Shown here piece by piece: positions 15,973 to 32,000 of a stretch of 32,000 bases of DNA. The notes beneath the pieces were generated by a model that worked only from the letters and a program-made list of their open reading frames with translations, was not told the DNA's origin and searched no databases. The DNA lies in contig NZ_CP026993.1 in assembly GCF_013407145.1 (NCBI RefSeq), forward strand, positions 858,590 through 890,589, written 5' to 3'. The position numbers and the translations under genes were made by a program. Source of the DNA: Nitrosopumilus cobalaminigenes (GTDB taxonomy: Archaea; Thermoproteota; Nitrososphaeria; Nitrososphaerales; Nitrosopumilaceae). Every line of letters begins with the position of its first letter. Within the stretch, counting starts at the first letter, position 1.

Positions 15973-16004
15973 TCATTGATTAGTTTTATTCCGAGGAATA
16001 TAGT

Positions 16005-16060: not shown

Positions 16061-16111
16061 TAATTAGAAATCCATTTCTAACTTTAAATCATCTGAAAAT
16101 GAAAATATCTT

Positions 16112-16336: not shown

Positions 16337-16347
16337 GGTTCATCTTG

Positions 16348-16608: not shown

Positions 16609-16647
16609 AAAAAGAATATTTCCACTATGCTTAAGTTCACACAAAAT
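16609..16647 (+). promoter_or_regulatory. shared promoter/leader box, copy 1 (core ATGCTTAAGTTCACACAAAAT)
   Basis: The 21-nt core at 16627..16647 is identical to 17866..17886, and the flanking AAAAAGA is also shared. The core ends 11 nt before the predicted start codon in both copies. Confidence 0.6.
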
Positions 16648-16658
16648 CCAGATAATTA

Positions 16659-17015
16659 TTGGGTTTTAAGAAAAGACGAAACAATCGTCATAACAACTAC
16701 AATAGAAAAAAAGGAGGAGCACGTCCAAAGTTAGCAGTTATTGGTGCTATCTCTTTAGTAATTGGAATTTTACTAATCCACTATGTCGGAGTGCCAGAGT
16801 TGCGTGCAGATAGAATGTCCGATAACCCTGCATTGATTGCAGGTTTTGTAGGCGTTGTGGGAGGAGTTTTGATGTTATTGCTTAGTTTGAGTAAAAGAAA
16901 TCAAGTTCGAGTGGGAAACGTAATAGATTCTGCAAGAGAGGCATTTAGAGATGATTGTATGTGTTGTAAATGCCAGAATTGTGACAGAAATCACAATCAC
17001 TGGACACATGATTAA
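16659..17015 (+). CDS. membrane protein with basic N-terminus, two TM helices and a Cys/His-rich C-terminus (118 aa)
   Basis: The TTG start aligns exactly with the ATG of 17898 relative to the shared promoter box. The C-terminus is CMCCKCQNCDRNHNHWTHD. Confidence 0.5.
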   Translation: MGFKKRRNNRHNNYNRKKGGARPKLAVIGAISLVIGILLIHYVGVPELRADRMSDNPALIAGFVGVVGGVLMLLLSLSKRNQVRVGNVIDSAREAFRDDCMCCKCQNCDRNHNHWTHD

Positions 17016-17033
17016 TTCATTTCAAATTAGATT

Positions 17034-17789
17034 TTAGGATTCACAACCGATTCCATCATTGTCCCTATCAAATCCATGAGGGTCACTTCCAATTACTCGG
17101 AAATTAGAATATCCAATATCCCCACAGTTTAGGTCTGGAGGATATGGTGGGATGCAGACATCAGGATATGATGGGTCACATTTTGGTGCATCATCAGTTG
17201 GTGGATTATAGTTTGATTCTTTTATTGTATAACACAACCCATCAGACCAGAGATACGGATAGTCGTTGTGACAACCATTTGATAGATATTCAGGCGAATT
17301 GTAACAGAATCCATTAGACCAATAGTATGGCTTGTTTACAGGACAATCAGGTTCTACCGTACTATGGCAGTAACCATCAGACCAGAGATACGGATTATTT
17401 TTGTGACATCCATTTTCTAAATAATCAGAGTACGAATCAGATGAACTAGTTCCTAAAAGATCATCTAGTAAATCATTTAGTTTTGCATTTTCTGTTTTTA
17501 GATTTTTATTTTCAGATTCTAAATCTAAAATCCTAGTTTCTAGGTTGTTTACCTTTTTTTGTAAAATAGAATTATCCTGATTTGGCATGTCAACTTTTAT
17601 GATATTTTGCTCAATTAGAAATGAGATAGATTCTCCAAAATCACTATCAGAAATATTCCCTTTTACCCAATAATCAGCCACTCCTTTAACCCATGCAGGA
17701 ATCTCTGATTGAGATTGTGCAGAAATTGAGGTAATTGAAATGCTAGAAATTACAATGCCAAGTATTGCAAATAATAGTAATTTTCTCAC
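17034..17789 (-). CDS. secreted protein with coiled-coil, three Cys-bracketed PY-WS-G repeats and a C-terminal Excalibur-like Ca-binding motif
   Basis: Signal peptide MRKLLLFAILGIVISSISITSISAQS. Three repeats follow: NGCHKNNPYLWSDGYCH, CPVNKPYYWSNGFCY and NGCHNDYPYLWSDGLCY. The C-terminal DRDNDGIGCE matches the Excalibur DxDxDGxxCE signature. Confidence 0.7.
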   Translation of the reverse strand: MRKLLLFAILGIVISSISITSISAQSQSEIPAWVKGVADYWVKGNISDSDFGESISFLIEQNIIKVDMPNQDNSILQKKVNNLETRILDLESENKNLKTENAKLNDLLDDLLGTSSSDSYSDYLENGCHKNNPYLWSDGYCHSTVEPDCPVNKPYYWSNGFCYNSPEYLSNGCHNDYPYLWSDGLCYTIKESNYNPPTDDAPKCDPSYPDVCIPPYPPDLNCGDIGYSNFRVIGSDPHGFDRDNDGIGCES

Positions 17790-17850
17790 AAATTATTCAA
17801 GACATACTGTAAATTAAGAATTTAAGAGAAAATCAGTTTTGGTTCTATGA

Positions 17851-17886
17851 AAAAAGAGTTCCAATATGCTTAAGTTCACACAAAAT
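17851..17886 (+). promoter_or_regulatory. shared promoter/leader box, copy 2
   Basis: See 16609..16647. The identical 21-nt core lies at 17866..17886, and the ATG at 17898 begins 11 nt after it. Confidence 0.6.
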
Positions 17887-17897
17887 TTATCAAAATT

Positions 17898-18116
17898 ATG
17901 ACATTTTGTTCTTATTGCGGTCATGAATTAGAAGCATACTCTAACTATTGCTCAGAATGCGGAAAACAAGATAAATCAAAAAAGGAAATTCTCCATGATT
18001 TCAATATAGGACAACAATCAGTTGAAAAAATGTTTGAGAAAGGAAATCGTTGTGAAAAATGCAGACATTTGATAACTGGAAAATTTTGCAAGAATTGTGG
18101 TTGTAAAAATAGTTAG
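17898..18116 (+). CDS. double zinc-ribbon protein (72 aa)
   Basis: CSYCGHEL...YCSECG and CEKCRHLI...FCKNCGC, giving two CxxC-Nn-CxxC ribbons. Confidence 0.55.
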   Translation: MTFCSYCGHELEAYSNYCSECGKQDKSKKEILHDFNIGQQSVEKMFEKGNRCEKCRHLITGKFCKNCGCKNS

Positions 18117-18232
18117 AATAATCTGCAATTACTATATGATTACTTTTGATCATACTCCGATAGAATACGATAATATCCCGAGTTAATGCGATTATACTCC
18201 GATATGACACAATTATGGTAATAATCGTGAGA

Positions 18233-18350
18233 GGCTCAGCTTTTGCTCGGGCACGATGGTTTTGCGATTATGGGTGGCTCAGCTTTTACTCAGGCACGAT
18301 GGTTTTGCGATTATGGGTGGCTCAGCTTTTACTCAGGCACGATTATATGG
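18233..18350. repeat. 43-bp tandem repeat, 2.6-2.7 copies, intergenic
   Basis: The unit GGCTCAGCTTTTACTCAGGCACGATGGTTTTGCGATTATGGGT occurs at 18233, 18276 and 18319 (partial). Copy 1 differs from copy 2 at 2 positions. The array lies between convergent genes. Confidence 0.9.
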
Positions 18351-18361
18351 AAAACAGGGCT

Positions 18362-18646
18362 CTATTGGAATTCTTTTTTCAACTCATCGTATTCTGCTTT
18401 TGTAATCTCGCCTTTTGCCAATCTAGTTTTTAGAATATTCAATGAATTGTTGTTTTGATCATTTTTGATTTTATCAGGATTCTCTTCAGTTACAGGGGGA
18501 TTGGATTGTAAATCAGACATGTCTTCTTGAAATGTGTTTTTTGATTTTCTGCTTGCTACAATTGCGATAACTACAATTATTGGAATTACAAATAAAATCA
18601 AAACTAGCAATTCAGTAGTGCCAATCATATTGACATATTGCATCAT
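18362..18646 (-). CDS. single-TM protein with C-terminal SHOCT domain (94 aa)
   Basis: N-terminal TM LLVLILFVIPIIVVIAIVA. The C-terminal LNILKTRLAKGEITKAEYDELKKEF fits the SHOCT consensus. Confidence 0.65.
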   Translation of the reverse strand: MMQYVNMIGTTELLVLILFVIPIIVVIAIVASRKSKNTFQEDMSDLQSNPPVTEENPDKIKNDQNNNSLNILKTRLAKGEITKAEYDELKKEFQ

Positions 18647-19275
18647 TTCTCAAATTCCCCCTTTAACTCATCATACTCTGACTTTGTAATCTCACCTTTT
18701 GCTAGTCTACTTTTTAGAATTCCTAAATTACTTAGATCATCATCTTTAGGATTGACATATGCTTTAGCAGATTGTGATTGTTTTGGTCTGGAATGATATG
18801 CTTTTCTTTTTTCGCAAGTCGTATGATGATTATGCAGTTCTTTACCGTTTTCTGCTAAATAATTACAGTATACACATCGCTCATAATCACTACGTCCTTT
18901 GAAGTAATCTACTACATGTGGTCTCCACATGTAAAATAGAACTATTACATCTATCACGATATATCCAATTGCAAATACATTTCCTCCAAATAGTGTCATT
19001 AGTTGAATTATCAAATTAACTATTGCAAGAATGATTACAATTACTCTACCACCACTTCTTCCGCTGAACAATGCACCAGCAATTGTAAACTCGATTAATG
19101 CTGCAATAACTATTGCAGATGCAATCCAACCTGCAAATTGACCAATTCCACCAAGAAATGAATTACCCATCATACTATTTGCAATATATCCAACCCCAAT
19201 TGCCAGAGCAAACAAGGTCAGCCCTTCAAGAATATACCAAACTCCTAGAAATGAAACGCCTAGAGGTCTACCCAT
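18643..19275 (-). CDS. multi-TM protein with Cys/His cluster and C-terminal SHOCT domain (210 aa)
   Basis: Four or so TM helices, then CVYCNYL...HNHHTTC, then the C-terminal LGILKSRLAKGEITKSEYDELKGEF. There is a 4-nt overlap with the downstream SHOCT gene. Confidence 0.7.
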   Translation of the reverse strand: MGRPLGVSFLGVWYILEGLTLFALAIGVGYIANSMMGNSFLGGIGQFAGWIASAIVIAALIEFTIAGALFSGRSGGRVIVIILAIVNLIIQLMTLFGGNVFAIGYIVIDVIVLFYMWRPHVVDYFKGRSDYERCVYCNYLAENGKELHNHHTTCEKRKAYHSRPKQSQSAKAYVNPKDDDLSNLGILKSRLAKGEITKSEYDELKGEFEK

Positions 19276-19458
19276 TAGATATCCCTCTTTTGAGAAATCA
19301 TAGAGTTTACACTAGAAATCTGAAACTCTGTCAAGTGAAGAAAATATGAATTTCTCAACATAGGGTTTGCCAAAAAATTGCATATAAACAATATTGTAGT
19401 TTAAGATGTTACAATTACGTTTACGAGTATTCATGCGTCAAACCCTGAATAAATCGAT

Positions 19459-19490
19459 GGCTCAGATTTTACTCAGGCACGATTGTATCA
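19459..19490. repeat. isolated distal copy of the first ~32 nt of the 43-bp repeat family
   Basis: GGCTCAGATTTTACTCAGGCACGATTGTAT compared with GGCTCAGCTTTTACTCAGGCACGATTATAT at 18319. Both are in the same orientation, on the far side of the two SHOCT genes. Confidence 0.8.
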
Positions 19491-19554
19491 AAAAGAGTAG
19501 AATTTGAGGGTGTTTTGTAGAAGAGTTTAGAAATCACTTTACAAATCATAAGTT

Positions 19555-20850
19555 ATGAATGTCCAAGACAAAAGAAAGAATGGGATAAACAACGATACAA
19601 TAATTTCTGAATTAGAAAAAATTCCCACTATCAATCAATATGAAGATGTTCTCATTCGATTAGCAGTTGACAAATTAACTGATTCTAATAATCTCTATTT
19701 TGCAAGGATTGATTATCTCTGTAAAGGAGATCCTTTACCTGAAGAATTTACAAAAAACTATGATGATATAATCATTACACAGTTAATCAAAAAACGTGGC
19801 GAGTTTATAGAATTTTTATCAAACTTACTGAAAAACGGTTCATCAAAAATTAATGAGATTACTGTCAGTGCATCAATGAAACAAAACTGGGATTTTGTAT
19901 CTAGACCAAGTAATTCATCTCACGGTTATGTAAAAAGTGATTTTCCTCATTTAGGTGCAGAAACTCAATTAGAATATGATCGAAATAGAGATCCTTATGC
20001 CCTAGTTTCGGGGAAAAACCTCCCTCCATTTCCAAATACATCTAGGGCAATAATTGATTTGTTTGATTTGCATCATGGAGGAAGAGAAGGAGGATGGTTA
20101 AATGAAAATAAATTGATTATAGATGTACCTGATTATCGGGTAGGAATAAAGAAACTTAGAATTGGAAAAAATAAAATTTCAGTAGAAATTAATTCAAAAT
20201 TATTAGATGAATCAAAATTAGTCTGTCAGTTTTACACAGAAAAGAAACAAGAGGTTTCATCACGCATACAAAATGGAATTTCTGAAATGTCTTGTGAGGA
20301 TATCCCTAAAGAAATTCTTGCAGTGATAAAAGAAAAGGAAACTGATGAGGTTCTAGATTTTTTTGATTACACTGTAAGTTGGGCAATGTCTGAAGAAGCA
20401 GTAGAAAAAGAGGTTCCTGAAGATGTGATTCGAGGCTGGATTAATGGGGGAGAAAATGAAACAGTGGAATTCAAGGAAGTGCTCAAACATGCAGATGATG
20501 TCATGAAGTCAGTAGTTGCTTTTGCCAATACAGAGGGGGGCGTAATTCTTGTTGGAGTATCTGATGATTGTTCTATACTGGGATATGATGTTCCAGTAGA
20601 AGATGTAAAAAATAGATTTGGCAGAATGGTTGCAGACAAATGTGATCCTCCCATAGAATTTGAAATAGAAGAAGCCGATTTGAATCCACGAATAATTGTG
20701 ATAAAAATTCCTAAAGGAAAAAGCAAGATCTATTCAGTAACTAATGGTGCAATCTATGTTAGAAGACATAGTTCGGATAGATTCATCAAAACTACTGAGT
20801 TGATGGAAGTTTTTGGAGATAAGTCTCGAAATGATAATAATTCTGTTTAA
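19555..20850 (+). CDS. protein with C-terminal AlbA_2 (Schlafen/divergent-AAA-type) putative DNA-binding domain (431 aa)
   Basis: GENETVEFKEVLKHADDVMKSVVAFANTEGGVILVGVSDD is the characteristic E.E.K....AFAN..GG.+..GV.D signature. The N-terminal ~290 aa are unassigned. Confidence 0.7.
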   Translation: MNVQDKRKNGINNDTIISELEKIPTINQYEDVLIRLAVDKLTDSNNLYFARIDYLCKGDPLPEEFTKNYDDIIITQLIKKRGEFIEFLSNLLKNGSSKINEITVSASMKQNWDFVSRPSNSSHGYVKSDFPHLGAETQLEYDRNRDPYALVSGKNLPPFPNTSRAIIDLFDLHHGGREGGWLNENKLIIDVPDYRVGIKKLRIGKNKISVEINSKLLDESKLVCQFYTEKKQEVSSRIQNGISEMSCEDIPKEILAVIKEKETDEVLDFFDYTVSWAMSEEAVEKEVPEDVIRGWINGGENETVEFKEVLKHADDVMKSVVAFANTEGGVILVGVSDDCSILGYDVPVEDVKNRFGRMVADKCDPPIEFEIEEADLNPRIIVIKIPKGKSKIYSVTNGAIYVRRHSSDRFIKTTELMEVFGDKSRNDNNSV

Positions 20851-20871
20851 GTAAACTATTTCAAAATTAAG

Positions 20872-21948
20872 TCAAGGTTGAATTTGTTCAAATAATTCCG
20901 GATAAAGTGTAATAATTATCGAAGCAATTTGTGGGAGAGATACAGATACTGAAATAATTATTCCGATAAGAGGACTCCACTCTATGACTTTATCTTTGAA
21001 AGAGATTCCAGTTAGAACATCATCTTTAGAATCATTTGTAGGGTATTTCTTTTTTAATATTTGAATTAATTCTACATTATTTAGATCAAATGAATCATAA
21101 ATTTCTTGTATATTGTCATTCATTGAACCATTCGAATTTGAAATTATTTGTGAAACAACCTCATCAGTCTTTTGAATTTGTAATTTCATGACCCTGCGCA
21201 AATATTTGTTGTAAGAATTAATCCCGAAATACAAATAATTAATTTTCTCAAATTCGTTTTCCAAATGTAAGCTTAATTCTAAACTCGATTTTGCCAGATA
21301 GTACCTATAATCAGTGTAAATCAACAGCATTAAAAATTTCCAAATTGCAGATAATGAAATAATTGCAGATGCTAATGTAATAACAAGGAAAATTGTTCGT
21401 AAATATAACGAATCATTTTCAGATAGTTGTACATCATAAGAACCCAACACCAAGGCCATCATTGCAAATATTATCATTATTGGAATGGATGCCATCAAAA
21501 CTTTACTTACCCATCTAAATTCAACTACAGTTTTCATGGTGCCATTTACATCAAAGAATACTCTTGCCGATATTGTCGTAGGGGAAAGGAAATATCGTAT
21601 TGGAGCTAAAGTAAAAATAATAGGATAAAAAATTACTCCCAAAAATGCAAAAACAACATATTCGTTATAAAATATTGAAGGCGCGTAAACAATCAGGGCA
21701 AATAAGAATGCAAATGCACTGACAGCTACAGATGGAATGGATATCAAATAGCGAGCAGGTCGTTCAAGGGCATCCTTTTTAATTTCATTATGAGGGGTTT
21801 TATCCTCATAAACTAATTTTAGAATCCATTTGATGTTTAATGTATTGTATATTTCTCGATTTATTTTTACAGGAAGTTTTTGTACATATGAAGGAATTTG
21901 TTTAATTTTTGAACCTAAGTTTAATTCCACAATTTTACATAAACTCAT
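20872..21948 (-). CDS. multi-TM membrane protein with cytoplasmic C-terminal region (358 aa), function unknown
   Basis: At least 6 hydrophobic helices in the central part. It lies immediately downstream of polB on the same strand, with an 11-nt gap. Confidence 0.65.
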   Translation of the reverse strand: MSLCKIVELNLGSKIKQIPSYVQKLPVKINREIYNTLNIKWILKLVYEDKTPHNEIKKDALERPARYLISIPSVAVSAFAFLFALIVYAPSIFYNEYVVFAFLGVIFYPIIFTLAPIRYFLSPTTISARVFFDVNGTMKTVVEFRWVSKVLMASIPIMIIFAMMALVLGSYDVQLSENDSLYLRTIFLVITLASAIISLSAIWKFLMLLIYTDYRYYLAKSSLELSLHLENEFEKINYLYFGINSYNKYLRRVMKLQIQKTDEVVSQIISNSNGSMNDNIQEIYDSFDLNNVELIQILKKKYPTNDSKDDVLTGISFKDKVIEWSPLIGIIISVSVSLPQIASIIITLYPELFEQIQP

Positions 21949-21959
21949 ACTTTAATATA

Positions 21960-23741
21960 TTAGATCGTAATTTTTTGTATATAATTTAATGAAATAGACA
22001 TTGAATCATTACATTCCTTTTGATCAATTGATTCAATTGTACCCAACCACAATCTTTTCCTATCCGCATTAAGATTAACTTCTCTAGTTATTGGTGCAAT
22101 CTTTCCAATGTCTTGTATCCTATCTGATAGTATGCTTGAACGTAATCTAGAATTTCTCAACACATTAAATTTGTAAAATAATTTCCCGTCTTTTTCAAAT
22201 GTATCCAAGTGTTCAATTTCCTTAGACCCTAATCGTCCCAAACCACGTTGTTTCCAAATCCCGTTAAATCGATAGAATCCATTTTGTAAATAGAAGGTAT
22301 CTTGACTCTCACCATCATATGAGAAATCGCCTAATCGTTTAGAATCTAAATTCAGTTTCTTGGTAGTACAGATTGAATCAGTCGCAAAGGCCACAATGTC
22401 TCCCTCAAGCCTGTTTCTAGTCACAAATTCGTACAATTTGGCACGAGTATACCCTGTGATGAATGCAAACATTACAGGATTAAACAAATTCCCCATTACA
22501 CCATTGATCTTTTGGCCAGTCTTCCCATAAATTGAATTTAAGATAATTTTGATTGGTTGCTCTAATGGATTATTTTCTTTCTTTAGTTTCTGTCTTTTTT
22601 GATACAAAGATTGAATGAATTTTCTGTATGGATAAATATCAGATGTACTGATAAATTGATAACCTTCAAGAATCCTGTAAAGATTTTTTTTGCAGGCTTG
22701 GAGTTCTGATAACGTACAATACGTTACAAATTTCCCTGAAGGGTACAATATGACATTATTTGTTTTAAATGGGAATGGTGCCACTATACTATCATCTGGA
22801 ATATCACATAATACTTTGAAGAATCCCAACTTTGTATCTGCGTGTATTGATTTTCTTTTAATCCATTTACCTTTAGATAAATCTGGAAAGTGGGCAATGG
22901 CATCAGGGTATGCAGAGTTGATATCATAAAGATAGGCCTTGCCAATGTATCCTCGCTTGATTAATTCAATTCGTCCTCCAAAATATGACTTGAATGCTAA
23001 CTCTTGAATTGGATAAGGAGTATCAACGAATCTAGGTAGATTGATCCCATTGTTGATCAGAACTTTTTCTGCCAAATATCCTGCACTGGTCCATTTGGCA
23101 GGATAAAATGAAAATGCATTGCTAAATAGTGTAATCCATTTTTCAGATAATTCTTTTGTAAATTTACAATCTTGTATACAATAGTTTCTAATTTTTTTCT
23201 TGTTGTGATTGTAAAATCGTAATGTAAATTCTTTACGCTTTTCTTTCATAGAGAGATATTCTGAAGATAATTCTCCAATGTTTTTCTGATATGCATTACT
23301 TAGAGAACCTCCAAAGAATTGCATTATATCAAAAAACAATACTGAATGATGACCTTTCTTGATTCGAAGAGATTTGCCAGGAAAATATTCTAGATGGTAA
23401 TCCCCCCACCAGAAATCTAATTTTCCAGTGAAGCGATATCGATACAGTTCTGAGCCTAGCAGTTTGAGGATAACTTCGGCATCATAGGATAGATTATAGA
23501 AAAAGTTCCATGAACCGTGATATTTTTTACAAAATAGCCATTTTATCACGGATTCAGGTGTGATTTTGTCTAAATATCGCCCATCAGAGTCCGCAATTAG
23601 AAAGATATCTCCTTTGTAGGTCTCAGTGTCTAAGGCATGAATTTGTCGTAATTTAGAATGTGCAGAGTTGCGATTTTGAGGCCTTTTGGTGTAGACCTTG
23701 GATAAATCCCGGCACTCTGTTACGGGGAAGGATTCTGCCAT
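21960..23741 (-). CDS. polB: family B DNA polymerase, protein-primed type (pPolB)
   Basis: ExoI is ALDTETY (D38/E40), ExoII is YNLSYD (D87) and ExoIII is YCIQD (Y187/D191). YFGG lies at residues 253-256. Motif A is LYDINSAYP (D273), motif B is KIILNSIYGKTG (K398) and motif C is VAFATDSI (D455). At 593 aa it is similar in size to phage phi29 pol. Confidence 0.9.
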   Translation of the reverse strand: MAESFPVTECRDLSKVYTKRPQNRNSAHSKLRQIHALDTETYKGDIFLIADSDGRYLDKITPESVIKWLFCKKYHGSWNFFYNLSYDAEVILKLLGSELYRYRFTGKLDFWWGDYHLEYFPGKSLRIKKGHHSVLFFDIMQFFGGSLSNAYQKNIGELSSEYLSMKEKRKEFTLRFYNHNKKKIRNYCIQDCKFTKELSEKWITLFSNAFSFYPAKWTSAGYLAEKVLINNGINLPRFVDTPYPIQELAFKSYFGGRIELIKRGYIGKAYLYDINSAYPDAIAHFPDLSKGKWIKRKSIHADTKLGFFKVLCDIPDDSIVAPFPFKTNNVILYPSGKFVTYCTLSELQACKKNLYRILEGYQFISTSDIYPYRKFIQSLYQKRQKLKKENNPLEQPIKIILNSIYGKTGQKINGVMGNLFNPVMFAFITGYTRAKLYEFVTRNRLEGDIVAFATDSICTTKKLNLDSKRLGDFSYDGESQDTFYLQNGFYRFNGIWKQRGLGRLGSKEIEHLDTFEKDGKLFYKFNVLRNSRLRSSILSDRIQDIGKIAPITREVNLNADRKRLWLGTIESIDQKECNDSMSISLNYIQKITI

Positions 23742-24037
23742 ATTGCATCAGGTATTGATACTTGGTTTCCTCTACGTCGTTGGGATAGTTGAGAGCGAAT
23801 CTGGTTGTACTTTAATCCGGGAAAATTATTTCTGATTTGTCTAATGTAATTGTGATATCGTCTTAACTTTCCAGAACGTGTAAGATTTGCTTTTCTTTTT
23901 TTAATCAGAGGTTTTTGTTTTCTATCTATCTTTTCTAACTTCTTTTTAATTTGAAAACGAAGTTCTTTGACAAGTTTGGTATTTGGGAATATTTTTAATG
24001 CTTGTAATTGATCAAGCAAGTCTTGTTTTGTAGCCAT
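23720..24037 (-). CDS. small basic protein (105 aa), possible nucleic-acid binding
   Basis: Start chosen at M37 of the track ORF (MATKQDLL), which avoids overlap with 24057..24392. Arg/Lys-rich (KKRKANLTRSGKLRRYHNYIRQIR...QRRRG). It overlaps the polB start by 22 nt. Confidence 0.5.
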   Translation of the reverse strand: MATKQDLLDQLQALKIFPNTKLVKELRFQIKKKLEKIDRKQKPLIKKRKANLTRSGKLRRYHNYIRQIRNNFPGLKYNQIRSQLSQRRRGNQVSIPDAIWQNPSP

Positions 24038-24056
24038 GATAAAAAAGAAAAAGAAG

Positions 24057-24392
24057 TCAGAGAATAATCTCTGATCTTCTAATTGGACGATTGTTTTTAG
24101 ATAATCCCAAGTATGTTTTGAGTTGGAATTTTGTATCTGCAACAATCTTTTTGTGTTTTACTAGTTCATTCCAGGACTTTAGTAGAGAACTATTGTGTGA
24201 TTCATGTGACTTTAGTGGAAGTAATCGGTCTTCCCATGAATCATGTATTCTTTGTTGTACGTGAACATTTGTAGTTAATTCTGAATCCATTGTTTCAGTT
24301 TTTACTACTTTACATTCAAGTACATCTGGTTTGTCAGGATTTTTGGAATGACATTCACCCCATTTGATAAAAGAGATGCTTTCAGTACTCAT
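24057..24392 (-). CDS. hypothetical protein (111 aa)
   Basis: ORF in the polB-upstream operon, with a 4-nt overlap with the preceding gene. Confidence 0.5.
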   Translation of the reverse strand: MSTESISFIKWGECHSKNPDKPDVLECKVVKTETMDSELTTNVHVQQRIHDSWEDRLLPLKSHESHNSSLLKSWNELVKHKKIVADTKFQLKTYLGLSKNNRPIRRSEIIL

Positions 24393-24619
24393 TTTTTATC
24401 TCCCTTTGAAGGAGAGAGTTTGATGAATTTTTCTCCCTTTTCCTGTACTAGTTCAACCTTGAACTTTTTGGTTCTCCCATCAATACAGTTTTCAAGTGCT
24501 ACTCTTGGAAGAGTGACTGTGTTTGTTGTATTGTTTTTAGAGATTTTTCGCAGACCAAATGATGTGGTCGTTGAATTTGTAGTCCTTGGTTCACATGTTT
24601 TTGTGGATTTTTTCTCCAT
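24389..24619 (-). CDS. small protein, possible AbrB/SpoVT-like DNA-binding fold (76 aa)
   Basis: VTLPRVALENCIDG..KKFKVELVQEKGEKFIKLSP resembles the swapped-hairpin AbrB pattern. It is the first gene of the operon leading to polB. Confidence 0.45.
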   Translation of the reverse strand: MEKKSTKTCEPRTTNSTTTSFGLRKISKNNTTNTVTLPRVALENCIDGRTKKFKVELVQEKGEKFIKLSPSKGDKK

Positions 24620-24675
24620 GAATAATATAAAACAGATTTTAATATAGGCTATTTCTAACGATATATGTAAGATAT

Positions 24676-25317
24676 ATGGCCAATTATAGACGAGAACTAT
24701 CTAAAATTGAGCAAAAAGATGTCCATTCCAGATACAAAATACATACAGATGATTATGGAGGAATTTTCACCAAAGACAAACGTCGAAAGTTACTTGGTCT
24801 TAAACAAAAACAAGGAAAGTATCATGAAGATACTGCGGATTTTTGGTATGATGTGAGGTCTAGTGTAAAAAGTGGTTTGATGGATCTAGAGTTATTTTTT
24901 GAAGTAGCCGATAAAAATCAAATCAAAGATGTACTTTATGATGCAGAACAAAAAGCACAATTAGATTTACTAAAACAAAAACTTGAACTTAACAAACAAT
25001 ATGAACTAGAAAGACAAATTCCATCCTTCACACGTGTCTTATCTGTATTATTTCAAAAATATTACAAATCTCGCAAGTACAAATTATCTACAGGTGAAAC
25101 TAGAAAATATTCTGAACATGTTGAAGAAGATGATACATGGAGGGCAGAAATTATTGAAAAAATGATCAACACTTGTATTATTTATTTAAGAGATCATAAT
25201 TTGATTTCTTCAAAAGCACATGAACGATTGACTGATGAATTTATTGATATGGTTAATGTTGAAATTGCTAGAGGAACAAAACTGTCTTTAAATGAGAGAG
25301 TAAAAGGTTCTGTTTAA
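24676..25317 (+). CDS. hypothetical protein (213 aa)
   Basis: Clean ORF, divergent from the polB operon across a 56-nt AT-rich spacer. No recognised domain. Confidence 0.6.
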   Translation: MANYRRELSKIEQKDVHSRYKIHTDDYGGIFTKDKRRKLLGLKQKQGKYHEDTADFWYDVRSSVKSGLMDLELFFEVADKNQIKDVLYDAEQKAQLDLLKQKLELNKQYELERQIPSFTRVLSVLFQKYYKSRKYKLSTGETRKYSEHVEEDDTWRAEIIEKMINTCIIYLRDHNLISSKAHERLTDEFIDMVNVEIARGTKLSLNERVKGSV

Positions 25318-25321
25318 AAAA

Positions 25322-26935
25322 CTATTTTTCATCATGATCAATACTGTGTTTTGAATAATATTTCTCTAGAAAATTTAACTTTATGTTTTCTTCTTTGATA
25401 CACCTTATTACAACCATTAACCCTTCATGTGAAAAACCTATTTCACCTTTTTGATTTTTACTATAAAGATGAGGATACTGTTTCAAAATTTGCTTATATT
25501 TTACCTCATTTACAAATTCATCATTGAATATTTTTTTATAATCTTCAGAAAGATAATTATCTTCCAACCACTTTGCTTTTTCATCGGATAAATGCATAAT
25601 TTTTAGTGGTTCGCTTAATTCTTTGTATTGTTTTACAATTTCTGCGATATTTTTAATTTTATTTTTCAAAATTTTTCCAAAATCAGGATCATAAAATCCT
25701 GCAGACATTATTGAAACAAACAAACGTTTGCTAAATTTCTGTATCGTATCCATATCTAGAGGGTAATGAGCCAGAAACTTGGTCATTTTACCATCGACAT
25801 AGTGACCAAAGTCAATATGTAAAAATTTCTCCCCTTTAGAAACATCAAATCGTAGATTATAATCGATTTTTTTCTCATCTAAAAGATCAAAACGAATTAC
25901 AGCGCTTCCTCTTGAATTTTGAGTTACATTCTGATAGTAAAAACTATCTTCGGTATTGAGTTCCTTTGATATTCCAAATAAGAAAAATTCAGGAATAGTA
26001 ATTTGAGATGTATGATCATTGTCAGATTCGTATTCAAATGGATATAGCGCAGAAAAATACATCCAAGGTAAAGGAGTATAATTTGCATGAAAAAGAGATA
26101 CATGCATCATACTTAGAAAATTTTCTTGCTGGTATGATTTTTCAAGTAACATTTTACAGGATTTGATAAATAATTCAGGAGTCTTGACTTTTGGATTAGG
26201 TTCATTTTCATATCTACTTGATAAATTGAATGAAATCGTCTTTTCATTTTTCAAATCATAAAATATGCAACCCAGAAACACATCAGGACTAAATTTTGAT
26301 TTATTGGATTTTGAATAAATATAGAAATAACTGAATGCAAAACAATTTTGTATTTCTTTTGATTTGTTTTTTAATTCCAAGATTTTTTGAATAGAAGTAC
26401 GATTTTTATCAATTATTTCACAATCAATTTCATCATTATTTTCATAAAGTATCAATACATTAGAAAATAAATTAAACATGTTTTTTCCGGAATTGTTTTG
26501 TTGATATAATTTAATTTCAGAATCTGCATATTCTTTAAGAAAATCAATTATTTTTTTGAAATTTTTTGAATTTATTTTTTCAACATGAACACAAGGCTTT
26601 CGCCGCTTGTCAAAGTGCTCATAAGTATACATTTCAACATCGGATTTGGCAGTATGATCTGAAATTTTATCCATGTAGACTCCATCGATATTTGCAAATT
26701 GATTATATTGTAAAGCAAAAAGTGCACCTAATTCTGAGCAATCAACTGTTATTCGTTCATTGTTTTTTTCTAAAAAAATATGTCCAAAATTCTTTGTTGT
26801 TTCAAGTTCCCCTTTTTCATTTTTCGCCATAGCGATAGTCCCGCTTCTGTCAACTACGATGTACCCTTGTGAAAGTAGTTCTTTGAATTCTTCCTCGGTT
26901 TTAATTTTAATTAGTTTCTTACTTTTTTTATCCAA
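25322..26935 (-). CDS. large hypothetical protein (537 aa), no recognisable domain
   Basis: Long uninterrupted ORF in AT-rich DNA, which is unlikely by chance. The antisense ORFs 26566..26832 and 26760..27008 are shadows. Confidence 0.7.
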   Translation of the reverse strand: MDKKSKKLIKIKTEEEFKELLSQGYIVVDRSGTIAMAKNEKGELETTKNFGHIFLEKNNERITVDCSELGALFALQYNQFANIDGVYMDKISDHTAKSDVEMYTYEHFDKRRKPCVHVEKINSKNFKKIIDFLKEYADSEIKLYQQNNSGKNMFNLFSNVLILYENNDEIDCEIIDKNRTSIQKILELKNKSKEIQNCFAFSYFYIYSKSNKSKFSPDVFLGCIFYDLKNEKTISFNLSSRYENEPNPKVKTPELFIKSCKMLLEKSYQQENFLSMMHVSLFHANYTPLPWMYFSALYPFEYESDNDHTSQITIPEFFLFGISKELNTEDSFYYQNVTQNSRGSAVIRFDLLDEKKIDYNLRFDVSKGEKFLHIDFGHYVDGKMTKFLAHYPLDMDTIQKFSKRLFVSIMSAGFYDPDFGKILKNKIKNIAEIVKQYKELSEPLKIMHLSDEKAKWLEDNYLSEDYKKIFNDEFVNEVKYKQILKQYPHLYSKNQKGEIGFSHEGLMVVIRCIKEENIKLNFLEKYYSKHSIDHDEK

Positions 26936-27017
26936 TTGCTTATTTCAATCAAATTATGTATTTCAATTTAATTATCCAAGTAAAACATTATTTGTCAATA
27001 AAATATGAAGATAATAC

Positions 27018-27809
27018 ATGTGGTTTGATAATCCTTTGTTACCGCCTTTACTAGTTCTTGTTGCTATTGGTATTGCTGTTGGATATATGATAGGATTTGT
27101 TGATAATGATGTAGATTCTGCAAGTGAATTGGGGATTTATCTTGCTGCAATTTCAATTGGATTGACAGGAGCAGTTTTCATATTGCAAAGTAAAACTAGC
27201 CATGAAGTTAAAGATATTGTTAAGAAAATGGATGATGAAAAAAAGGATAGAAAAGAATATGTCCTCAGAGGATTGGTAAACGCGTTTAGAGAAACACGTT
27301 ATAATCTGCAATTGATGCGTTCAGAATTACTGACATTGGCACGATCCAATGGAGTAAATGGAAATAAGCAAACAATAGAAAACAATTGGAAAATTATTAA
27401 CAATTCAGGAGTTGACAGAATTCAATTTTTAATAACATTGTCTCATGATGTTATTTCAACCTCTAAATTAGATCAAATTGAAACTGTCAAAAATATTATG
27501 AAATCCGAATATGATTCAGATTATAACACCATGAGTACTATAGTATCGTTCTTGTTAACTCAATCAGATTATGTATTTAGAGATGATCTTAAAGAATTAC
27601 GACTTAAAATGGCAAAAGAAGAAATTTCAAAATTAGTATCAGAATTAAAAAGTGGGGCGGATGAAAATTCATTAAGTTTTCAGAGAAATAAAAGGCGGTG
27701 GGAATCCTATCTATATTTACCAACAGATGATGAAATCAAAAATGAGTGTGAATCTAAACTTGAAGCAACTTCTTCTGAAGACAGCACTCTGCCAGATTTT
27801 GAACCATGA
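27018..27809 (+). CDS. two-TM N-terminal anchor plus helical cytoplasmic domain protein (263 aa)
   Basis: TM helices LLPPLLVLVAIGIAVGYMIGF and LGIYLAAISIGLTGAVFIL. The 3' end overlaps the 3' end of cas1 by 56 nt (convergent). Confidence 0.6.
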   Translation: MWFDNPLLPPLLVLVAIGIAVGYMIGFVDNDVDSASELGIYLAAISIGLTGAVFILQSKTSHEVKDIVKKMDDEKKDRKEYVLRGLVNAFRETRYNLQLMRSELLTLARSNGVNGNKQTIENNWKIINNSGVDRIQFLITLSHDVISTSKLDQIETVKNIMKSEYDSDYNTMSTIVSFLLTQSDYVFRDDLKELRLKMAKEEISKLVSELKSGADENSLSFQRNKRRWESYLYLPTDDEIKNECESKLEATSSEDSTLPDFEP

Positions 27810-28770
27810 CCTTAGCAACAGTAATCTCTTGAACTGATTTCAGACCTGATTTTGTCTTCTTTCCGTGCCTAAAATCATACTTTCTTTCCTGTGAAAATTG
27901 CCTTTCTAATAATTCTAAAAACCTTCTAATCAAATCGTATTCAATTACTACAGTTCCATCTTTGGTGTAACTATACTCTTTGAGTTTGATTCTATTTCTC
28001 TTCTCTTTGTTATTTGCAATTTTATACACAGAATAGTCCACTAACCATCTGAATGGCTCAATCAAATCATAAACTAGGGGTTGAAATCCTGTGTGAGTTT
28101 TATGCATAAATCCAAAGTAAGGATCAAGACCAATTCCACAGACAAATTTTGATATCTCACCTGCCAAAACAGAATACCCATAATTCAGTAAAGCATTGAT
28201 GATGTCAGTTGCATCATTTTTGGCAATTCTGATAGAGGATTGATTCCTTGAATGAAATCCATATTTTTCCGGGATGAATTTGGCATATTCTCTAAAGTAG
28301 ATTATGGCGGCAGATGATTCTCTATCAGGTAATGAAGTAATGCCACTACCAATTAGTTTGAGCAGTTTTAGTTGAGATTCTTTTTTGGCCGAGATGATTT
28401 GTTTTCTCAGATATCCACATTTTGACTCGTTTCGAAACGTATCATATTGTGCTATTCGGTATTTTGTTCCAGTTAGAGAATCCATCATGCCATTACAGAA
28501 AGTGACGGGTTTTCCGTGATTATCAAGTAAAATGACATTTCGGTTATTTTGAGAAAGTAGCGATAATGCCTCAGTGGAGACGTAGCCCTTTCCTGAAATA
28601 ACAATTTTCTCATATGGCATGTTTTTGACAAACCATTCCTCAATTTCAGGCTCAGAAAATGGGTCGTGATTTGATTTTAGGATAATTTTAGAATTTTTAA
28701 CAGAAATAGAATGACCATAGCCTTTGAGGAATTTTATGTTATAGTGGTTTTTTTGACCTTTAAGAGTCAA
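27754..28770 (-). CDS. cas1: Cas1 family integrase (casposase), solo
   Basis: ESSAAIIYF (E151), the signature INALLNYGYSVLAGEI....GLDPYFGFMHKT (H223) and PLVYDLIEPFR (D235/E238), and an N-terminal beta-rich domain. 338 aa. There is no cas2 or CRISPR in the window. Confidence 0.9.
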   Translation of the reverse strand: MTLKGQKNHYNIKFLKGYGHSISVKNSKIILKSNHDPFSEPEIEEWFVKNMPYEKIVISGKGYVSTEALSLLSQNNRNVILLDNHGKPVTFCNGMMDSLTGTKYRIAQYDTFRNESKCGYLRKQIISAKKESQLKLLKLIGSGITSLPDRESSAAIIYFREYAKFIPEKYGFHSRNQSSIRIAKNDATDIINALLNYGYSVLAGEISKFVCGIGLDPYFGFMHKTHTGFQPLVYDLIEPFRWLVDYSVYKIANNKEKRNRIKLKEYSYTKDGTVVIEYDLIRRFLELLERQFSQERKYDFRHGKKTKSGLKSVQEITVAKVMVQNLAECCLQKKLLQV

Positions 28771-29665
28771 ATTCTTTAATTTGATATTCTACATCTTCAA
28801 ACGGATTTTCTAATTGATTAAGCTGATTGTAAATCAGAGTAATTGCAATGTTCAAACAATTCCAAGCATTCTCTTGAGTCACTTCTCTTTTTTTCCTATG
28901 AACAATATCATTTCTTAATTTTCTTAATTTTGTAAAGCATTCATATCCTTTTGAATCAAGTTTCTCAGAAAACGTAAAGGCCTCAATATAATGACTAGTG
29001 CTCCAAGAATGATGATTTTTTAATGCTTGTCTTTCCTCCTTTGTTCTCTTCAAATCTTTGACAAATTTTTCCCAAACTCTTTCTATAACACTTTCAATAA
29101 CAATCCAGGAATTAAGAAAAGATATGCTAAACAATTCATCTTGATACATTCCACCAGATTCACCAATTATCAACAAATCATTTTTGAAACTATCATTGTC
29201 AAGGAAACGAGCTGATTGATCAATTAACATTTCCATAAGATGTTTTTGAATTGGTTGTCTTTCAATTGTTGACCAATATTCATAGTCTACATCATCTTCA
29301 CGTTTACTTTCTTGAATTACCCGTAAAGATTTACTCAAACTACCTGCAGCTACAACATAATCCCAATCTTCTTTCCAAGTAAATCCACAGATATCATTTT
29401 TTGTAATAAATCTGGCCCGATGAAATTTTGTGATAAATACTGCAAAAAGTACATTGAGAAATTCAAATGCTTCATCTTCGTTTTTCCCAATAGGACAAAC
29501 AAAACAATCATCAGTTACTAGAACTCGCAATCCTTCGGATGTAGTAGTGTCGATAACAATGGGTCTTTTAATCGTCGATATTCGTGGTAGTTTCTCAGGA
29601 TTTGCTTCATAAAGTTGAGATGGTGGATAAAAAAATGTGCCAAAACCAATCGTTCTTCCAGTCAT
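28760..29665 (-). CDS. protein with C-terminal HEPN-like domain (R-x4-H), 301 aa
   Basis: KLRKLRNDIVHRK (R251-N-D-I-V-H256, nt 28898..28915) sits in a helical C-terminal half. The stop overlaps the cas1 start by 11 nt, and the start overlaps the upstream ORF stop by 4 nt. Confidence 0.6.
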   Translation of the reverse strand: MTGRTIGFGTFFYPPSQLYEANPEKLPRISTIKRPIVIDTTTSEGLRVLVTDDCFVCPIGKNEDEAFEFLNVLFAVFITKFHRARFITKNDICGFTWKEDWDYVVAAGSLSKSLRVIQESKREDDVDYEYWSTIERQPIQKHLMEMLIDQSARFLDNDSFKNDLLIIGESGGMYQDELFSISFLNSWIVIESVIERVWEKFVKDLKRTKEERQALKNHHSWSTSHYIEAFTFSEKLDSKGYECFTKLRKLRNDIVHRKKREVTQENAWNCLNIAITLIYNQLNQLENPFEDVEYQIKEFDS

Positions 29666-29889
29666 GTATTGTCTCTAATCTTAGTCATTTTTACAGATTT
29701 CCTAGTTAATTCATCAATTGCACTCTGAATAATAGAATGATCTCTATTTGCCATTTGACTTAACATTTGAGCAGTTTCTTTCAAATCTTGATTGTTAAAT
29801 CCTTGAGCACTTTGCTTCCAATTCTCAGCATAGAATTTTAGCATATTTTGATAGTTGGACAATATCTCAATTGCCTTGGCTTTTGTCAT
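29662..29889 (-). CDS. small helical protein (75 aa), first gene of the cas1 operon
   Basis: ORF beginning ~110 nt inside the right TIR terminus. A TATA-like CTTTAAG lies ~30 nt upstream. Confidence 0.5.
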   Translation of the reverse strand: MTKAKAIEILSNYQNMLKFYAENWKQSAQGFNNQDLKETAQMLSQMANRDHSIIQSAIDELTRKSVKMTKIRDNT

Positions 29890-29946
29890 TACTTTGTCAT
29901 AATGAACATCATGATCTTAAAGAATTTGCAACAAAATAGAATCTGA

Positions 29947-30000
29947 AAAATCATCTAGTGTACCGTCTAAAATTAGGCGTAAAAGGGGGGCATTCTATTT
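29947..30000 (-). repeat. right terminal inverted repeat (R)
   Basis: The reverse complement is AAATAGAATGCCCCCCTTTTACGCCTAATTTTAGACGGTACACTAGATGATTTT. It pairs with L1 (16022) and, over a longer span, with L2 (16348). Confidence 0.85.
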
Positions 30001-30018
30001 TTATTCTTTATCGATAAA
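30001..30018. repeat. right copy of the target-site duplication; also the last 5 codons plus stop of aEF-2
   Basis: TTATTCTTTATCGATAAA is identical to 16005..16022. Confidence 0.9.
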
Positions 30019-32000
30019 TTCTGAAACACCTGGTGGTTCTGGTGCCAATCCTTTTCTCTTTCTAATATCAGCTACTGCTGGTCCTAACATTGATTTTGGA
30101 ACTTCAGTCCATTCTTTGAAAGAAGTATTCCAAGTTGCACGACCGGCAGTCTGTCCTCTCATAGCTTCTGATAGTGTAAAAGTTTCTGATGCAGGAATCT
30201 CTCCAACGACAATACTTGTTGCACCTTTTTGTGACATATCAAGTACTTTACCTCGTTTACCTGAAAGTATAGTTGCAACATTTCCAACCAAATCAGTTGG
30301 TACACGAACTTCAATTGCCAAAGTTGGCTCCAACACTGCAGTACCTGCTGTTAGCAAAGCACCCATACATGCACGTCTTGATGCAGGTCCTAATTGTGAC
30401 AAACCTCTGTGTGCTGTATCCTCGTGAGGAACAAAGTGAGTAAAGATGAATTTACAATCCCTCATCTGTTCTTTACAGAGAGGACCTTCTTTCATTACTT
30501 CTTCAAATCCTGAATTAATAGAATCAGTGGACTCTTGTACAAATTGAACACCTTTTGTTCCATTAATCAAAACATTACCACGTGAATCAAATTTCATAAT
30601 TCTCTTGATTGTGTCAGTATCCCATCCTGCACCTTTGAGTAAATCAGATACCACCTTCTTATCTTTGATGTCAGATATTTCACCAGTTCTTAGCATATGT
30701 GCAATTTCAGGTTCTAGTGGTTCTACTTTCATGAAAATTTTATTGTGACGGTTTGGTGATTTTGCCATGATTGGCTCACATGGACCTTTTACAGTTTCTC
30801 TGTAGTTAATCAAAGGCTCTGATGTTACAATCTCAACTTTTGCATCTTGGATTCTGTGTGTTGCAACATCCAAGTGTAGCACACCCATTCCTGCAACAAT
30901 TGTCTCACCTGATTCCTCATCAATTTTTACAACAAGGTTAGGATCCTCAATGGTTAATTGTCTTAAAACTTCGACTAGTTTAGGTAAATCTTTAGGATGT
31001 TTTGGCTCGATGGCAATTTGAACAACTGGTTCTGACACATACTTTACACCTTCAAACATTGGAATGTCTTTAATTGATGATAGAGTGTTTCCTGCTCTAC
31101 ACTCAGTTAATCCTAATAATGCTGGAATATTTCCTGCTCCTAGTTCACCAACTTGTTCTCTTTGGTTACCCATAAAGAAATTGACGGATTGAACTCTGCC
31201 TTCTCTTTTCTCATCTATAATGTTCAAAGTTTGACCATCTTTGATAGTACCAGAAAATAATCTTCCAATTGCAACAGGACCTGCTGCAGGATCTAACACC
31301 ATGTTTACAACCATCATAATTGTTGGACCATCATCATCTCCTGCAAGCAATGCTTTACCTACATCAGATTCTAAATCGCCTTTCCAAATTTGTGGGATTC
31401 TGTACTTGATTGCATCGTGTGGTGCTGGATGATGTTTTACAACCATTCCAAGAACAGCATCAGCTAGTGGTGCTTTCTCAATAAGGTCTGGAAGTTTTTC
31501 ATCAGTGTATGCATCAATTACATCTTTGAATGTGATTCCTCTTTCTTTCATTAAATCAGTGTTAATTGCCCATCTGTCTTTTGCTGAACCAAATGTCACA
31601 CTTGCATCTTGAATAGATACTTTCCATTTCTCTTTGTATTCAGGTTCTGCATAAGTGTCAACTAGAGTATTGAAATTTGAAACAACTTCAGCTAATTGTG
31701 CTTGCATTTTTTCTGGAGTTAATCTTAGTTCTTTGATTAATCTGTCTACTTTGTTGATAAACAAAACGGGTTTTACTCTCTCCTCTAGTGCCATTCTAGT
31801 TACTGTTTCTGTTTGAGTCATGATACCTTCTACTGCATCACAGACAACTACAGCACCATCAATTGCTCTTAGTGAACGAATTACCCTTCCACTGAAATCT
31901 ACGTGGCCTGGAGTATCAATCATGTTAATTACGTATTCTTGGTCTTTTTGTGCAAAGAGCAAAGTAACGTTTGCTTGGTAAATTGTAATTCCTCTTTCCT
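30001..32000 (-). CDS. fusA: translation elongation factor aEF-2 (5'-partial; N-terminus lies beyond the window)
   Basis: The reading frame stays open to the window edge (..RGITIYQANVTLLFAQKD..). The G-domain motif is DTPGHVDF. The diphthamide-site region is HEDTAHRG. 653+ aa of clear EF-2/EF-G family sequence, ending ..SEFIDKE. Confidence 0.95.
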   Translation of the reverse strand, partial: ERGITIYQANVTLLFAQKDQEYVINMIDTPGHVDFSGRVIRSLRAIDGAVVVCDAVEGIMTQTETVTRMALEERVKPVLFINKVDRLIKELRLTPEKMQAQLAEVVSNFNTLVDTYAEPEYKEKWKVSIQDASVTFGSAKDRWAINTDLMKERGITFKDVIDAYTDEKLPDLIEKAPLADAVLGMVVKHHPAPHDAIKYRIPQIWKGDLESDVGKALLAGDDDGPTIMMVVNMVLDPAAGPVAIGRLFSGTIKDGQTLNIIDEKREGRVQSVNFFMGNQREQVGELGAGNIPALLGLTECRAGNTLSSIKDIPMFEGVKYVSEPVVQIAIEPKHPKDLPKLVEVLRQLTIEDPNLVVKIDEESGETIVAGMGVLHLDVATHRIQDAKVEIVTSEPLINYRETVKGPCEPIMAKSPNRHNKIFMKVEPLEPEIAHMLRTGEISDIKDKKVVSDLLKGAGWDTDTIKRIMKFDSRGNVLINGTKGVQFVQESTDSINSGFEEVMKEGPLCKEQMRDCKFIFTHFVPHEDTAHRGLSQLGPASRRACMGALLTAGTAVLEPTLAIEVRVPTDLVGNVATILSGKRGKVLDMSQKGATSIVVGEIPASETFTLSEAMRGQTAGRATWNTSFKEWTEVPKSMLGPAVADIRKRKGLAPEPPGVSEFIDKE

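Follow-up and report, generated by a model that had tools for sequence, protein, structure and literature searches.

The DNA analysed here, which we call the window, is a stretch of 32,000 nucleotides (nt) of Nitrosopumilus cobalaminigenes (contig NZ_CP026993.1, positions 858,590 to 890,589). On its minus strand, at 27754-28770, lies a gene with a TTG start whose product of 338 amino acids (aa) was recognised as a Cas1 homologue from the open reading frame (ORF) list and from profile searches. The same window contains the 3' part of the gene for archaeal elongation factor 2 (aEF-2, gene ef-2), a gene coding for a family B DNA polymerase of the protein-primed type (pPolB), and a set of inverted and direct repeats that enclose the Cas1 and polymerase genes. 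As argued below, the Cas1 gene very probably encodes the casposase of a casposon inserted at the end of ef-2. The adaptation machinery of CRISPR (clustered regularly interspaced short palindromic repeats) is believed to descend from casposons.

Regarding the protein itself, the Pfam Cas_Cas1 family matches it with an E-value of 4.2e-41 and the generic cas1 model of NCBIfam gives 134 bits against a cutoff of 71.7. Judged by these profile scores, the identity of the 27754-28770 product as a Cas1 is far beyond chance. Its N-terminus is colinear with the N. koreensis homologue from residue 1. The motifs ESSAAIIYF, GFMHKT and VYDLIEPFR start at residues 151, 220 and 233, and contribute E151, H223, and D235 together with E238. 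All these residues are invariant in an alignment of 33 relatives that are 68-89% identical to the window protein. In HMMER alignments, H223, D235 and E238 fall on the H, D and E of the Methanosarcina mazei casposase (6OPM), and E151 falls on the Glu of the Archaeoglobus fulgidus Cas1 (4N06). A preliminary description of this DNA, made from the letters alone, had already named these residues as the catalytic ones; its numbering was right, and the profile alignment to 6OPM and 4N06 puts them on the known catalytic positions.

More than 1,100 homologues were found, and the close ones that carry a source name or a record title all come from Nitrosopumilaceae or other ammonia-oxidising Thaumarchaeota. 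The casposase of N. koreensis AR1 (P0023) is 82% identical over 334 aa without a gap. The window protein thus appears to belong to the thaumarchaeal family 1 clade of casposases, a membership judged by identity and by the named close matches rather than by a tree. Among solved structures, the best match is the casposase 6OPM, both by sequence and by Foldseek (E 3.6e-14). An identical protein (100%) is entered at NCBI as the Cas1 of N. cobalaminigenes, under the annotation 'CRISPR-associated endonuclease Cas1', a label that is misleading for this gene.

The borders of the element are given by its terminal inverted repeats (TIRs) and by a target site duplication (TSD). When 13 bp are taken as the TSD, the element occupies 16020-30002 and measures 13,983 bp. 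The outer left, or distal, TIR lies on the plus strand at 16020-16045 (28 nt at 93% in the inverted-repeat search, with an overall match of 22/23 to the right end). The right, EF-2-proximal TIR lies on the minus strand at 29947-30002 and was placed by inverted-repeat search, alignment and blastn-short; its terminus is AAAAATAGAATGCCCCCC. Comparing 16020-16045 with 29977-30002, these terminal 18 nt are perfect. The inverted-repeat search paired 29960-30004 with two left sites, namely 16018-16045 and 16348-16388, the second of which belongs to an inner TIR copy that is discussed further on.

The leader-proximal copy of the TSD, ATCGATAAAGAAT, is found on the minus strand at 30003-30015, after the leader TTT (30018-30016). 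The distal copy of 13 bp, also read on the minus strand, is found at 16007-16019 and is followed by the chromosomal 'spacer-side' flank. Both copies lie within a 19-bp exact direct repeat, TTTATTCTTTATCGATAAA. It has two occurrences and no more, 16004-16022 and 30000-30018, which adjoin the outer left TIR and the right TIR on their outer sides. No other exact 19-mer pair at long range flanks the element. The length of 13 bp was assigned to the TSD by homology to the experimentally mapped TSD of N. koreensis.

The leader side of the target is the 3' part of the aEF-2 gene (30001-32000, minus strand, 5' end beyond the window), which shows six EF-G/EF-2 Pfam domains and is 93% identical to its counterpart in a related locus, L016 (GCA_000328925.1), and 98% identical to that of a metagenomic contig, L015. 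Across the junction, the minus strand has the sequence ...GAA TTT / ATC GAT AAA GAA T / AA AAATAGAATGCCCCCC..., so that the last codons of EF-2 are F-I-D-K-E and the stop codon TAA (30003-30001) is made of the final T of the TSD and the AA of the element. The terminus of the right TIR also abuts the EF-2 stop codon in L001, L003 and L016, L008 and L009 have diverged forms of it there, and the junction follows the same grammar in L001, L003, L008 and L009 as in the window and L016. In L016, the reference-type element, EF-2 is followed by GAGTTT/ATTGATAAAGAGT/AAAAATAGAATCCCCCC, and a mirrored TIR with the same TSD is found 8,179 bp further on.

The target of family 1 casposons has been characterised biochemically in N. 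koreensis AR1, where the TSD was mapped as the 13-bp ATTGATAAAGAGT and where the enzyme was found to require the minimal leader TTT, the TSD positions A1, A11 and T13, and an ATAA ruler (PMC8464041). The window TSD is identical to that of N. koreensis at 11/13 positions, and the TTT, the ATAA, A1, A11 and T13 are all retained. The two differences are C3 and A12 in the window against T3 and G12 in N. koreensis. This natural variant of the target keeps exactly those positions that are essential in vitro, which gives independent support to the biochemical conclusions.

Besides the casposase, the element encodes the polymerase that defines family 1. The pPolB gene (21960-23741, minus strand; Pfam DNA_pol_B_2, PF03175, E 4e-26) is 59-68% identical to its counterparts in L001, L003, L016 and L017, with 62-64% for L001 and L016. 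It is complete and lines up along its whole length with the genes of L001, L016 and L017, and the L003 gene is cut by the end of the locus. Motifs A (DINSAYP), B (KIILNSIYG) and C (FATDS, 22380-22400, aa ~447-453) are all recognisable. In all four family 1 polymerases compared, motif C has FATDS where DTDS is usual. We considered FATDS as a lesion and rejected this, because it is conserved in all the family 1 sequences compared and so is a trait of the family.

Three small genes precede pPolB on the same strand. The first (24389-24619, minus strand, 76 aa) was found by tblastn and is 43-55% identical to sequences in L001, L003, L016, L017 and L018. The second (24057-24392, minus strand, 111 aa) is 42-51% identical in L001, L003, L016 and L017, and the third, directly upstream of pPolB (23720-24145, minus strand, 141 aa as listed), is 54-73% identical in the same four loci. 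The three genes are thus kept in 4-5 related loci, which fits the core published for family 1, in which Cas1 and pPolB are accompanied by three or four small genes that lie upstream of the polymerase (PMC4046053, PMC6563490). The gene at the position of the third one has been proposed as a terminal protein candidate, and conserved genes are reported there in the same two papers. In the region of the first small gene, the ORF list contains a 99-aa ORF on the plus strand (24348-24647); the antisense ORF of 76 aa shows the better conservation and has the same orientation as pPolB, and the plus-strand ORF is probably not the gene.

An empty site was also found. The query was made by joining the leader, one TSD and the distal flank, a combination that is impossible in an occupied locus, and it was searched in metagenomes. 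One metagenomic contig, L015, matched it. Positions 1-1575 of this contig correspond to window positions 31574-30000 at 93% (EF-2), and positions 1557-1838 correspond to 16022-15743 at 91%, including a gene for a Cys-rich protein of 74 aa at 95% identity. The two alignments overlap solely by the 19-bp repeat, which is present in a single copy in L015. Since L015 joins both flanks through one copy of the repeat, the ~14 kb between them are an insertion with exactly the predicted borders.

Therefore, we read the Cas1 gene as the casposase of a 13,983-bp family 1 casposon inserted at the 3' end of the Nitrosopumilus aEF-2 gene, with a probability of around 95%. This reading is carried by what was observed in the anatomy of the element, its homology, the conservation of its target determinants and the empty site. 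All the family 1 features that could be tested were found: the casposase and its clade, pPolB, the small genes, TIRs, TSD, an empty site, and a casposase without a helix-turn-helix (HTH) domain. The preliminary description had proposed that the enzyme works as a transposase, and this is now backed by the TIR- and TSD-bounded, pPolB-encoding element in which the gene lies and by its 82% identity to an enzyme whose site-specific integration was demonstrated in vitro (PMC8464041). That description identified the gene correctly and overlooked the context that explains it, namely the TIRs, the TSD, pPolB and the EF-2 target. It had also called the Cas1 'solo', with no adaptation partner; the lack of a partner holds, but the gene is not solo, since casposon ends and a polymerase accompany it.

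The closest described elements are NitAR1-C1 and NitSJ-C1 of Ca. Nitrosopumilus koreensis AR1 and Nitrosopumilus sp. SJ (Krupovic et al. 2014, PMC4046053; PMC8464041). The window element resembles this type in the colinear casposase (82% identical), in pPolB (64% identical) with the small genes upstream of it, and in the presence of a gene with an SLFN_AlbA_2 domain. It also shares the insertion at the ef-2 stop codon, the leader TTT, 11/13 positions of the TSD, the ATAA ruler and the terminus AAAAATAGAAT(G/C)CCCCC, and both lack Cas2 and an HTH in the casposase. In contrast, the size is 13,983 bp here against 8,179 bp in L016, where the gene order is Cas1, small genes, pPolB and SLFN_AlbA_2. 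The cargo of the window element differs too (a pair formed by a 75-aa gene and a HEPN gene, genes of 537, 358 and 263 aa, and a SHOCT pair), one more TIR copy lies within the element, and the TSDs disagree at positions 3 and 12.

The closest relatives that we found are the metagenomic loci L017 and L018 (Ga0114931_10001325 and k141_437776), whose Cas1 is 89-90% identical. They also have a HEPN gene directly upstream of Cas1 and the order Cas1, large gene, small genes and pPolB. Nevertheless, their HEPN protein is of the AbiV type and shows no tblastn similarity to that of the window, and the rest of the cargo differs as well. In both loci the EF-2-side end is cut by the end of the contig, and the likeness is known from the genes and not from the element ends.

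Several points weigh against this reading or limit it. The AlphaFold2 model of the Cas1, built from the 33-sequence alignment, is weak (mean predicted local distance difference test score, pLDDT, 62; predicted template modelling score, pTM, 0.35). With it Foldseek returned solely Cas1 and casposase structures, at a template modelling (TM) score of ~0.25, which indicates the fold family at most, and the catalytic residues are placed by profile alignment. The empty site was seen in a contig of a related population (91-93% identity) and not of the same strain. With 0.320, the G+C content of the element is the same as in the flanks, which deprives the reading of independent support from composition. 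The third TIR shows that the element is not a simple single insertion. The activity of this copy is deduced from homology to the enzyme of PMC8464041. Finally, the scans for CRISPR-Cas components cover the 32 kb window only.

Regarding the mechanism, the homology to the AR1 enzyme suggests that the casposase would act without Cas2 and would recognise the last codons of ef-2, that is, the leader TTT and ATCGATAAAGAAT, including its ATAA ruler. Both strands would be attacked, at points 13 bp apart, by the 3'-OH at each end of the element; E151, H223 and E238 (plus D235) would form the metal-dependent active site, and gap repair would then produce the 13-bp target duplication. The end of the element would supply the AA that completes the TAA, leaving ef-2 intact. 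Because the insertion falls downstream of the coding sequence and the stop codon is restored, the essential target gene would be unharmed; the same strategy has been noted in the literature for casposons and compared with that of Tn7. The pPolB and the conserved small genes upstream of it would copy the element, perhaps with a terminal protein encoded just upstream of pPolB, as hypothesised in the literature. The remaining genes would be element-specific cargo: a HEPN nuclease-like protein, a Schlafen/AlbA_2 protein, SHOCT proteins and several others. Both the activity of this casposon copy and its mode of replication are inferred.

The left end of the element contains a further TIR copy, on the plus strand at 16348-16402 and ~325 bp inside the outer left end. 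The inverted-repeat search gave 41 nt that are 83% complementary to the right TIR, and blastn-short matched 25/27 nt to positions 30-56 of that TIR. The right TIR is in this sense a mosaic, because the outer copy matches it over the terminal 23 nt (22/23) and the inner one over positions 30-56 (25/27). Between both left copies there is a 77-aa ORF (16103-16336, plus strand), hydrophobic by eye and with no homologue in the related loci. No intact TSD was found before the inner copy; a degenerate one with ~6/13 matches by eye was tried, and it was unconvincing.

More than two TIR copies at one locus are also known from the solo-TIRs of M. mazei casposons (PMC4779613) and from the tandem family 1 casposons NitNF5-C1 and NitNF5-C2, published for Ca. 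N. adriaticus NF5 (PMC6563490), where the ef-2 site was re-used. Intact tandem junctions (TIR-TSD-TIR) were found at ef-2 in L001 (9560-9700) and L009 (6174 and 7763). As a separate observation, L001 carries a second pPolB fragment (8690-9136), and its element is inverted relative to ef-2 in comparison with the window. Since no intact TSD precedes the inner TIR and only ~325 bp separate it from the outer end, the window does not hold an intact tandem pair like that of NF5.

The most economical explanation would be that the inner TIR is either a decayed tandem partner or part of a composite formed by deletion of the inner junction. The composite origin is a tentative proposal, which we consider possible and less probable than its opposite: after two family 1 casposons had inserted in tandem at ef-2, the inner junction, made up of the older right TIR, the TSD and the start of the newer left TIR, would have been deleted, so that the usable ends would now be the outer left and the right TIR. 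The segment of ~325 bp with the small hydrophobic ORF would have been captured in this way, which would be a route of cargo gain. If composites of this kind move as units, casposons would have a general way of varying their cargo, namely tandem insertion and subsequent loss of the junction.

These rearrangements are also pertinent to the only rival that keeps some weight, namely that the element is a casposon by descent, but that the present copy no longer moves, being a fossil or a domesticated island with defence-like cargo (HEPN, Schlafen/AlbA_2). The window holds a single copy, the extra internal TIR and the missing inner TSD point to past rearrangement, and the cargo is of the defence type. 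Furthermore, truncated Cas1 fragments occur at the same site in L006-L011, which indicates that decay of such elements is common. However, the direct repeats agree at 19/19 positions, and the TIR ends show no mismatch over their last 18 nt. Neither Cas1 nor pPolB nor any of the three core small genes is truncated, and all of them run colinear with their relatives; all the target determinants defined with AR1 are retained. In addition, the empty site comes from a population that is merely 7-9% diverged. The perfect repeats and termini, the intact core genes and this empty site argue that the copy may be recent or still functional, and we regard the fossil as unlikely, roughly a minority outcome of one in several.

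Another possibility concerns the C-terminal part of the casposase. The preliminary description had seen a ~95-aa C-terminal extension after the FR motif and had appealed to the C-terminal HTH of casposases, which would make the enzyme one of the kind found in families 2 and 3, with a DNA-binding extension. In favour of this, the family 2 casposase 6OPM is the best PDB match, and the weak AlphaFold model shows after the FR motif a beta-hairpin and two helices, the latter within residues 278-330. Nevertheless, the Pfam Cas1 model reaches residue 289 (model position 282/283), the type I-C and I-D Cas1 models of NCBIfam align as far as residues 325-326, and the type I-C Cas1 8D3L (343 aa) aligns to profile position 329, near its own end. 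In these alignments CRISPR Cas1 proteins come within ~10 residues of the end of the window protein. As the Pfam model, the I-C and I-D models and 8D3L all reach into the tail, it is the normal C-terminal part of a Cas1, and at most 10-15 residues would therefore be extra beyond an ordinary Cas1.

The comparison of the tail with HTH profiles, which the preliminary description had proposed, came out against it: residues 242-338 and 288-338 gave no Pfam match, hence no HTH family, at a nominal E<=10, at which the HMMER filters drop most matches above ~0.1. By contrast, the family profile aligns the 6OPM chain through residue 320 of 431, and ~110 residues of 6OPM have no counterpart here. A C-terminal HTH is a trait of families 2 and 3 and not of family 1, whose casposases lack it and have no additional domains (PMC4046053, PMC8464041). 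The window casposase likewise appears to carry no extra domain and no C-terminal HTH, which separates it from the HTH-bearing casposases of families 2 and 3. The polymerase points in the same direction, as it is of the protein-primed type that defines family 1. The family 2 enzymes (Aciduliprofundum boonei; M. mazei 6OPM, PMC6977970) share with it the Cas1 fold, the catalytic residues and Cas2-independent integration, but they have the C-terminal HTH with ~110 more residues, and their elements have a polymerase of the RNA-primed type, tRNA-gene or intergenic targets and TSDs of ~14 bp. An HTH-bearing casposase is for these reasons very improbable here.

We also looked for the components of a CRISPR adaptation module. 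No Cas2 family was found in any 60-200-aa stop-to-stop segment in the six frames of the window, nor in the larger ORFs scanned (~30, not all of them). In the Cas2 scan some 'Serglycin' matches appeared, and these were discarded as spurious, since they came from the GS linkers that joined small ORFs. Tandem Repeats Finder detected no CRISPR-like array in the 32 kb, and there was none among the largest 20 of at least 60 direct-repeat families in the window. Rfam gave no match in the window, and no tRNA was found there, so none is available as a target. The absence of a Cas2 ORF and of a repeat-spacer array in the 32 kb, as had been described before, is thus confirmed at the sensitivity of the six-frame, tandem-repeat, repeat-family and Rfam scans. 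The Cas1 models of the CRISPR subtypes all stayed far below their cutoffs (for example I-C, 89 bits against 385). Of the features expected of a CRISPR adaptation module, an adjacent cas2, a nearby array and a subtype Cas1 match, none was found in the window.

The CRISPR Cas1-Cas2 integrases are homologous to this enzyme, have the same Glu-His-Asp/Glu site and perform a leader-proximal, ruler-guided staggered integration that duplicates a repeat-like target, but here no Cas2 or array was found in the window, the subtype models are not reached, and a 14-kb element is concerned instead of spacers of ~30 bp. That the gene is the remnant of a degraded CRISPR-Cas module whose cas2 and array were lost or lie outside the window, as the NCBI label and the generic cas1 score above its cutoff could suggest, is extremely improbable, because gene and pPolB lie inside a TIR/TSD-bounded insertion that is absent from the empty site, all subtype models score far below cutoff, no Cas2, array or CRISPR-DR was found in the window, and the nearest relatives are all Nitrosopumilaceae casposon Cas1 proteins.

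Returning to the family 1 casposon, we found no published description of one in N. cobalaminigenes. The family, its ef-2 target, its enzyme and even HEPN and nuclease cargo in such elements have already been published. The present element adds a larger example in a good state of preservation, for which the two ends, the two TSD copies and a corresponding empty site are all available; beyond the points made on the target variant and on the NCBI label, current understanding is unchanged. To our knowledge, family 1 is the least sampled casposon group for which there is biochemistry.

Regarding the cargo, the element-specific genes include those of 75, 301 (HEPN), 263, 537, 213 and 358 aa, the SHOCT pair and the ORFs of 16659-18116, most of them, apart from the SHOCT pair, without a detectable family; the PADLOC and NCBIfam scans of the cargo genes gave weak HEPN matches only. 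A string of 75-aa, HEPN and Cas1 genes starts with the 75-aa gene (29662-29889, minus strand), which overlaps the next gene by 4 nt and showed no significant family in the Pfam, PADLOC and NCBIfam scans. The HEPN-domain gene (28760-29665, minus strand, 301 aa) overlaps the Cas1 start by 11 nt. Its Pfam HEPN matches are sub-threshold (RiboL-PSP, E 5e-5), PADLOC gives CARF_HEPN with E 8e-5, and the protein carries an Rx4H motif, RNDIVH, at aa 251. A HEPN gene occupies the same position upstream of Cas1 in L017 and L018 (321-1142 in L017); judging from these sequences, the position recurs while the gene itself is replaced.

On the other side of Cas1, a 263-aa ORF (27018-27809, plus strand) is convergent with it and overlaps it by 56 nt; this element-specific ORF has no family in Pfam, PADLOC or NCBIfam and no homologue in the related loci. 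It is followed by an element-specific gene of 537 aa (25322-26935, minus strand, from the ORF list) that likewise has no family in the three collections and no tblastn match in the related loci. Downstream of pPolB there is a 358-aa gene (20872-21948, minus strand) with no family in Pfam, PADLOC or NCBIfam, and then the gene for the Schlafen/AlbA_2-domain protein (19555-20850, plus strand, 431 aa; Pfam SLFN_AlbA_2, E 4e-23). A gene with this domain also adjoins pPolB in L016 (16533-17477), and between the two there is only a weak local match (37% over 64 aa).

Two paralogous genes for small membrane proteins with a SHOCT tail follow on the minus strand (18362-18646 and 18643-19275; Pfam and repeat scans). 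They share a 3' segment of 68 nt that is 81% identical. A 43-nt repeat brackets the pair, with ~three tandem copies at 18228-18356 and a distant copy at 19454-19496. Inside the casposon, this region could act as a regulatory repeat or form a small cassette. The last three cargo ORFs are found at 16659-17015 (plus strand), 17034-17789 (minus strand, with an Excalibur-like C-terminus) and 17874-18116 (plus strand, with a zinc ribbon). An exact 22-bp repeat, TATGCTTAAGTTCACACAAAAT, is present at 16626-16647 and 17865-17886, within a stretch of ~50 nt that is 80% identical. The two plus-strand cargo genes that begin at 16659 and 17874 each have one copy a short distance upstream, and the repeat is probably a duplicated promoter or 5' region.

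Finally, two tandem repeats were observed outside the casposon. Beside the insertion site, a 24-nt repeat with 2.9 copies (15213-15282) lies in the ORF of a small membrane protein (15150-15449). The homologue of this ORF in L015 (1837-2022) has 61 aa against 99 aa in the window, so the number of repeats is polymorphic. Further away, a perfect 24-nt tandem repeat with 10.3 copies (9431-9677) lies in a 437-aa ORF (8887-10200, minus strand) that has a weak Gp5_trimer_C match. The perfect identity of these copies suggests a recent expansion.

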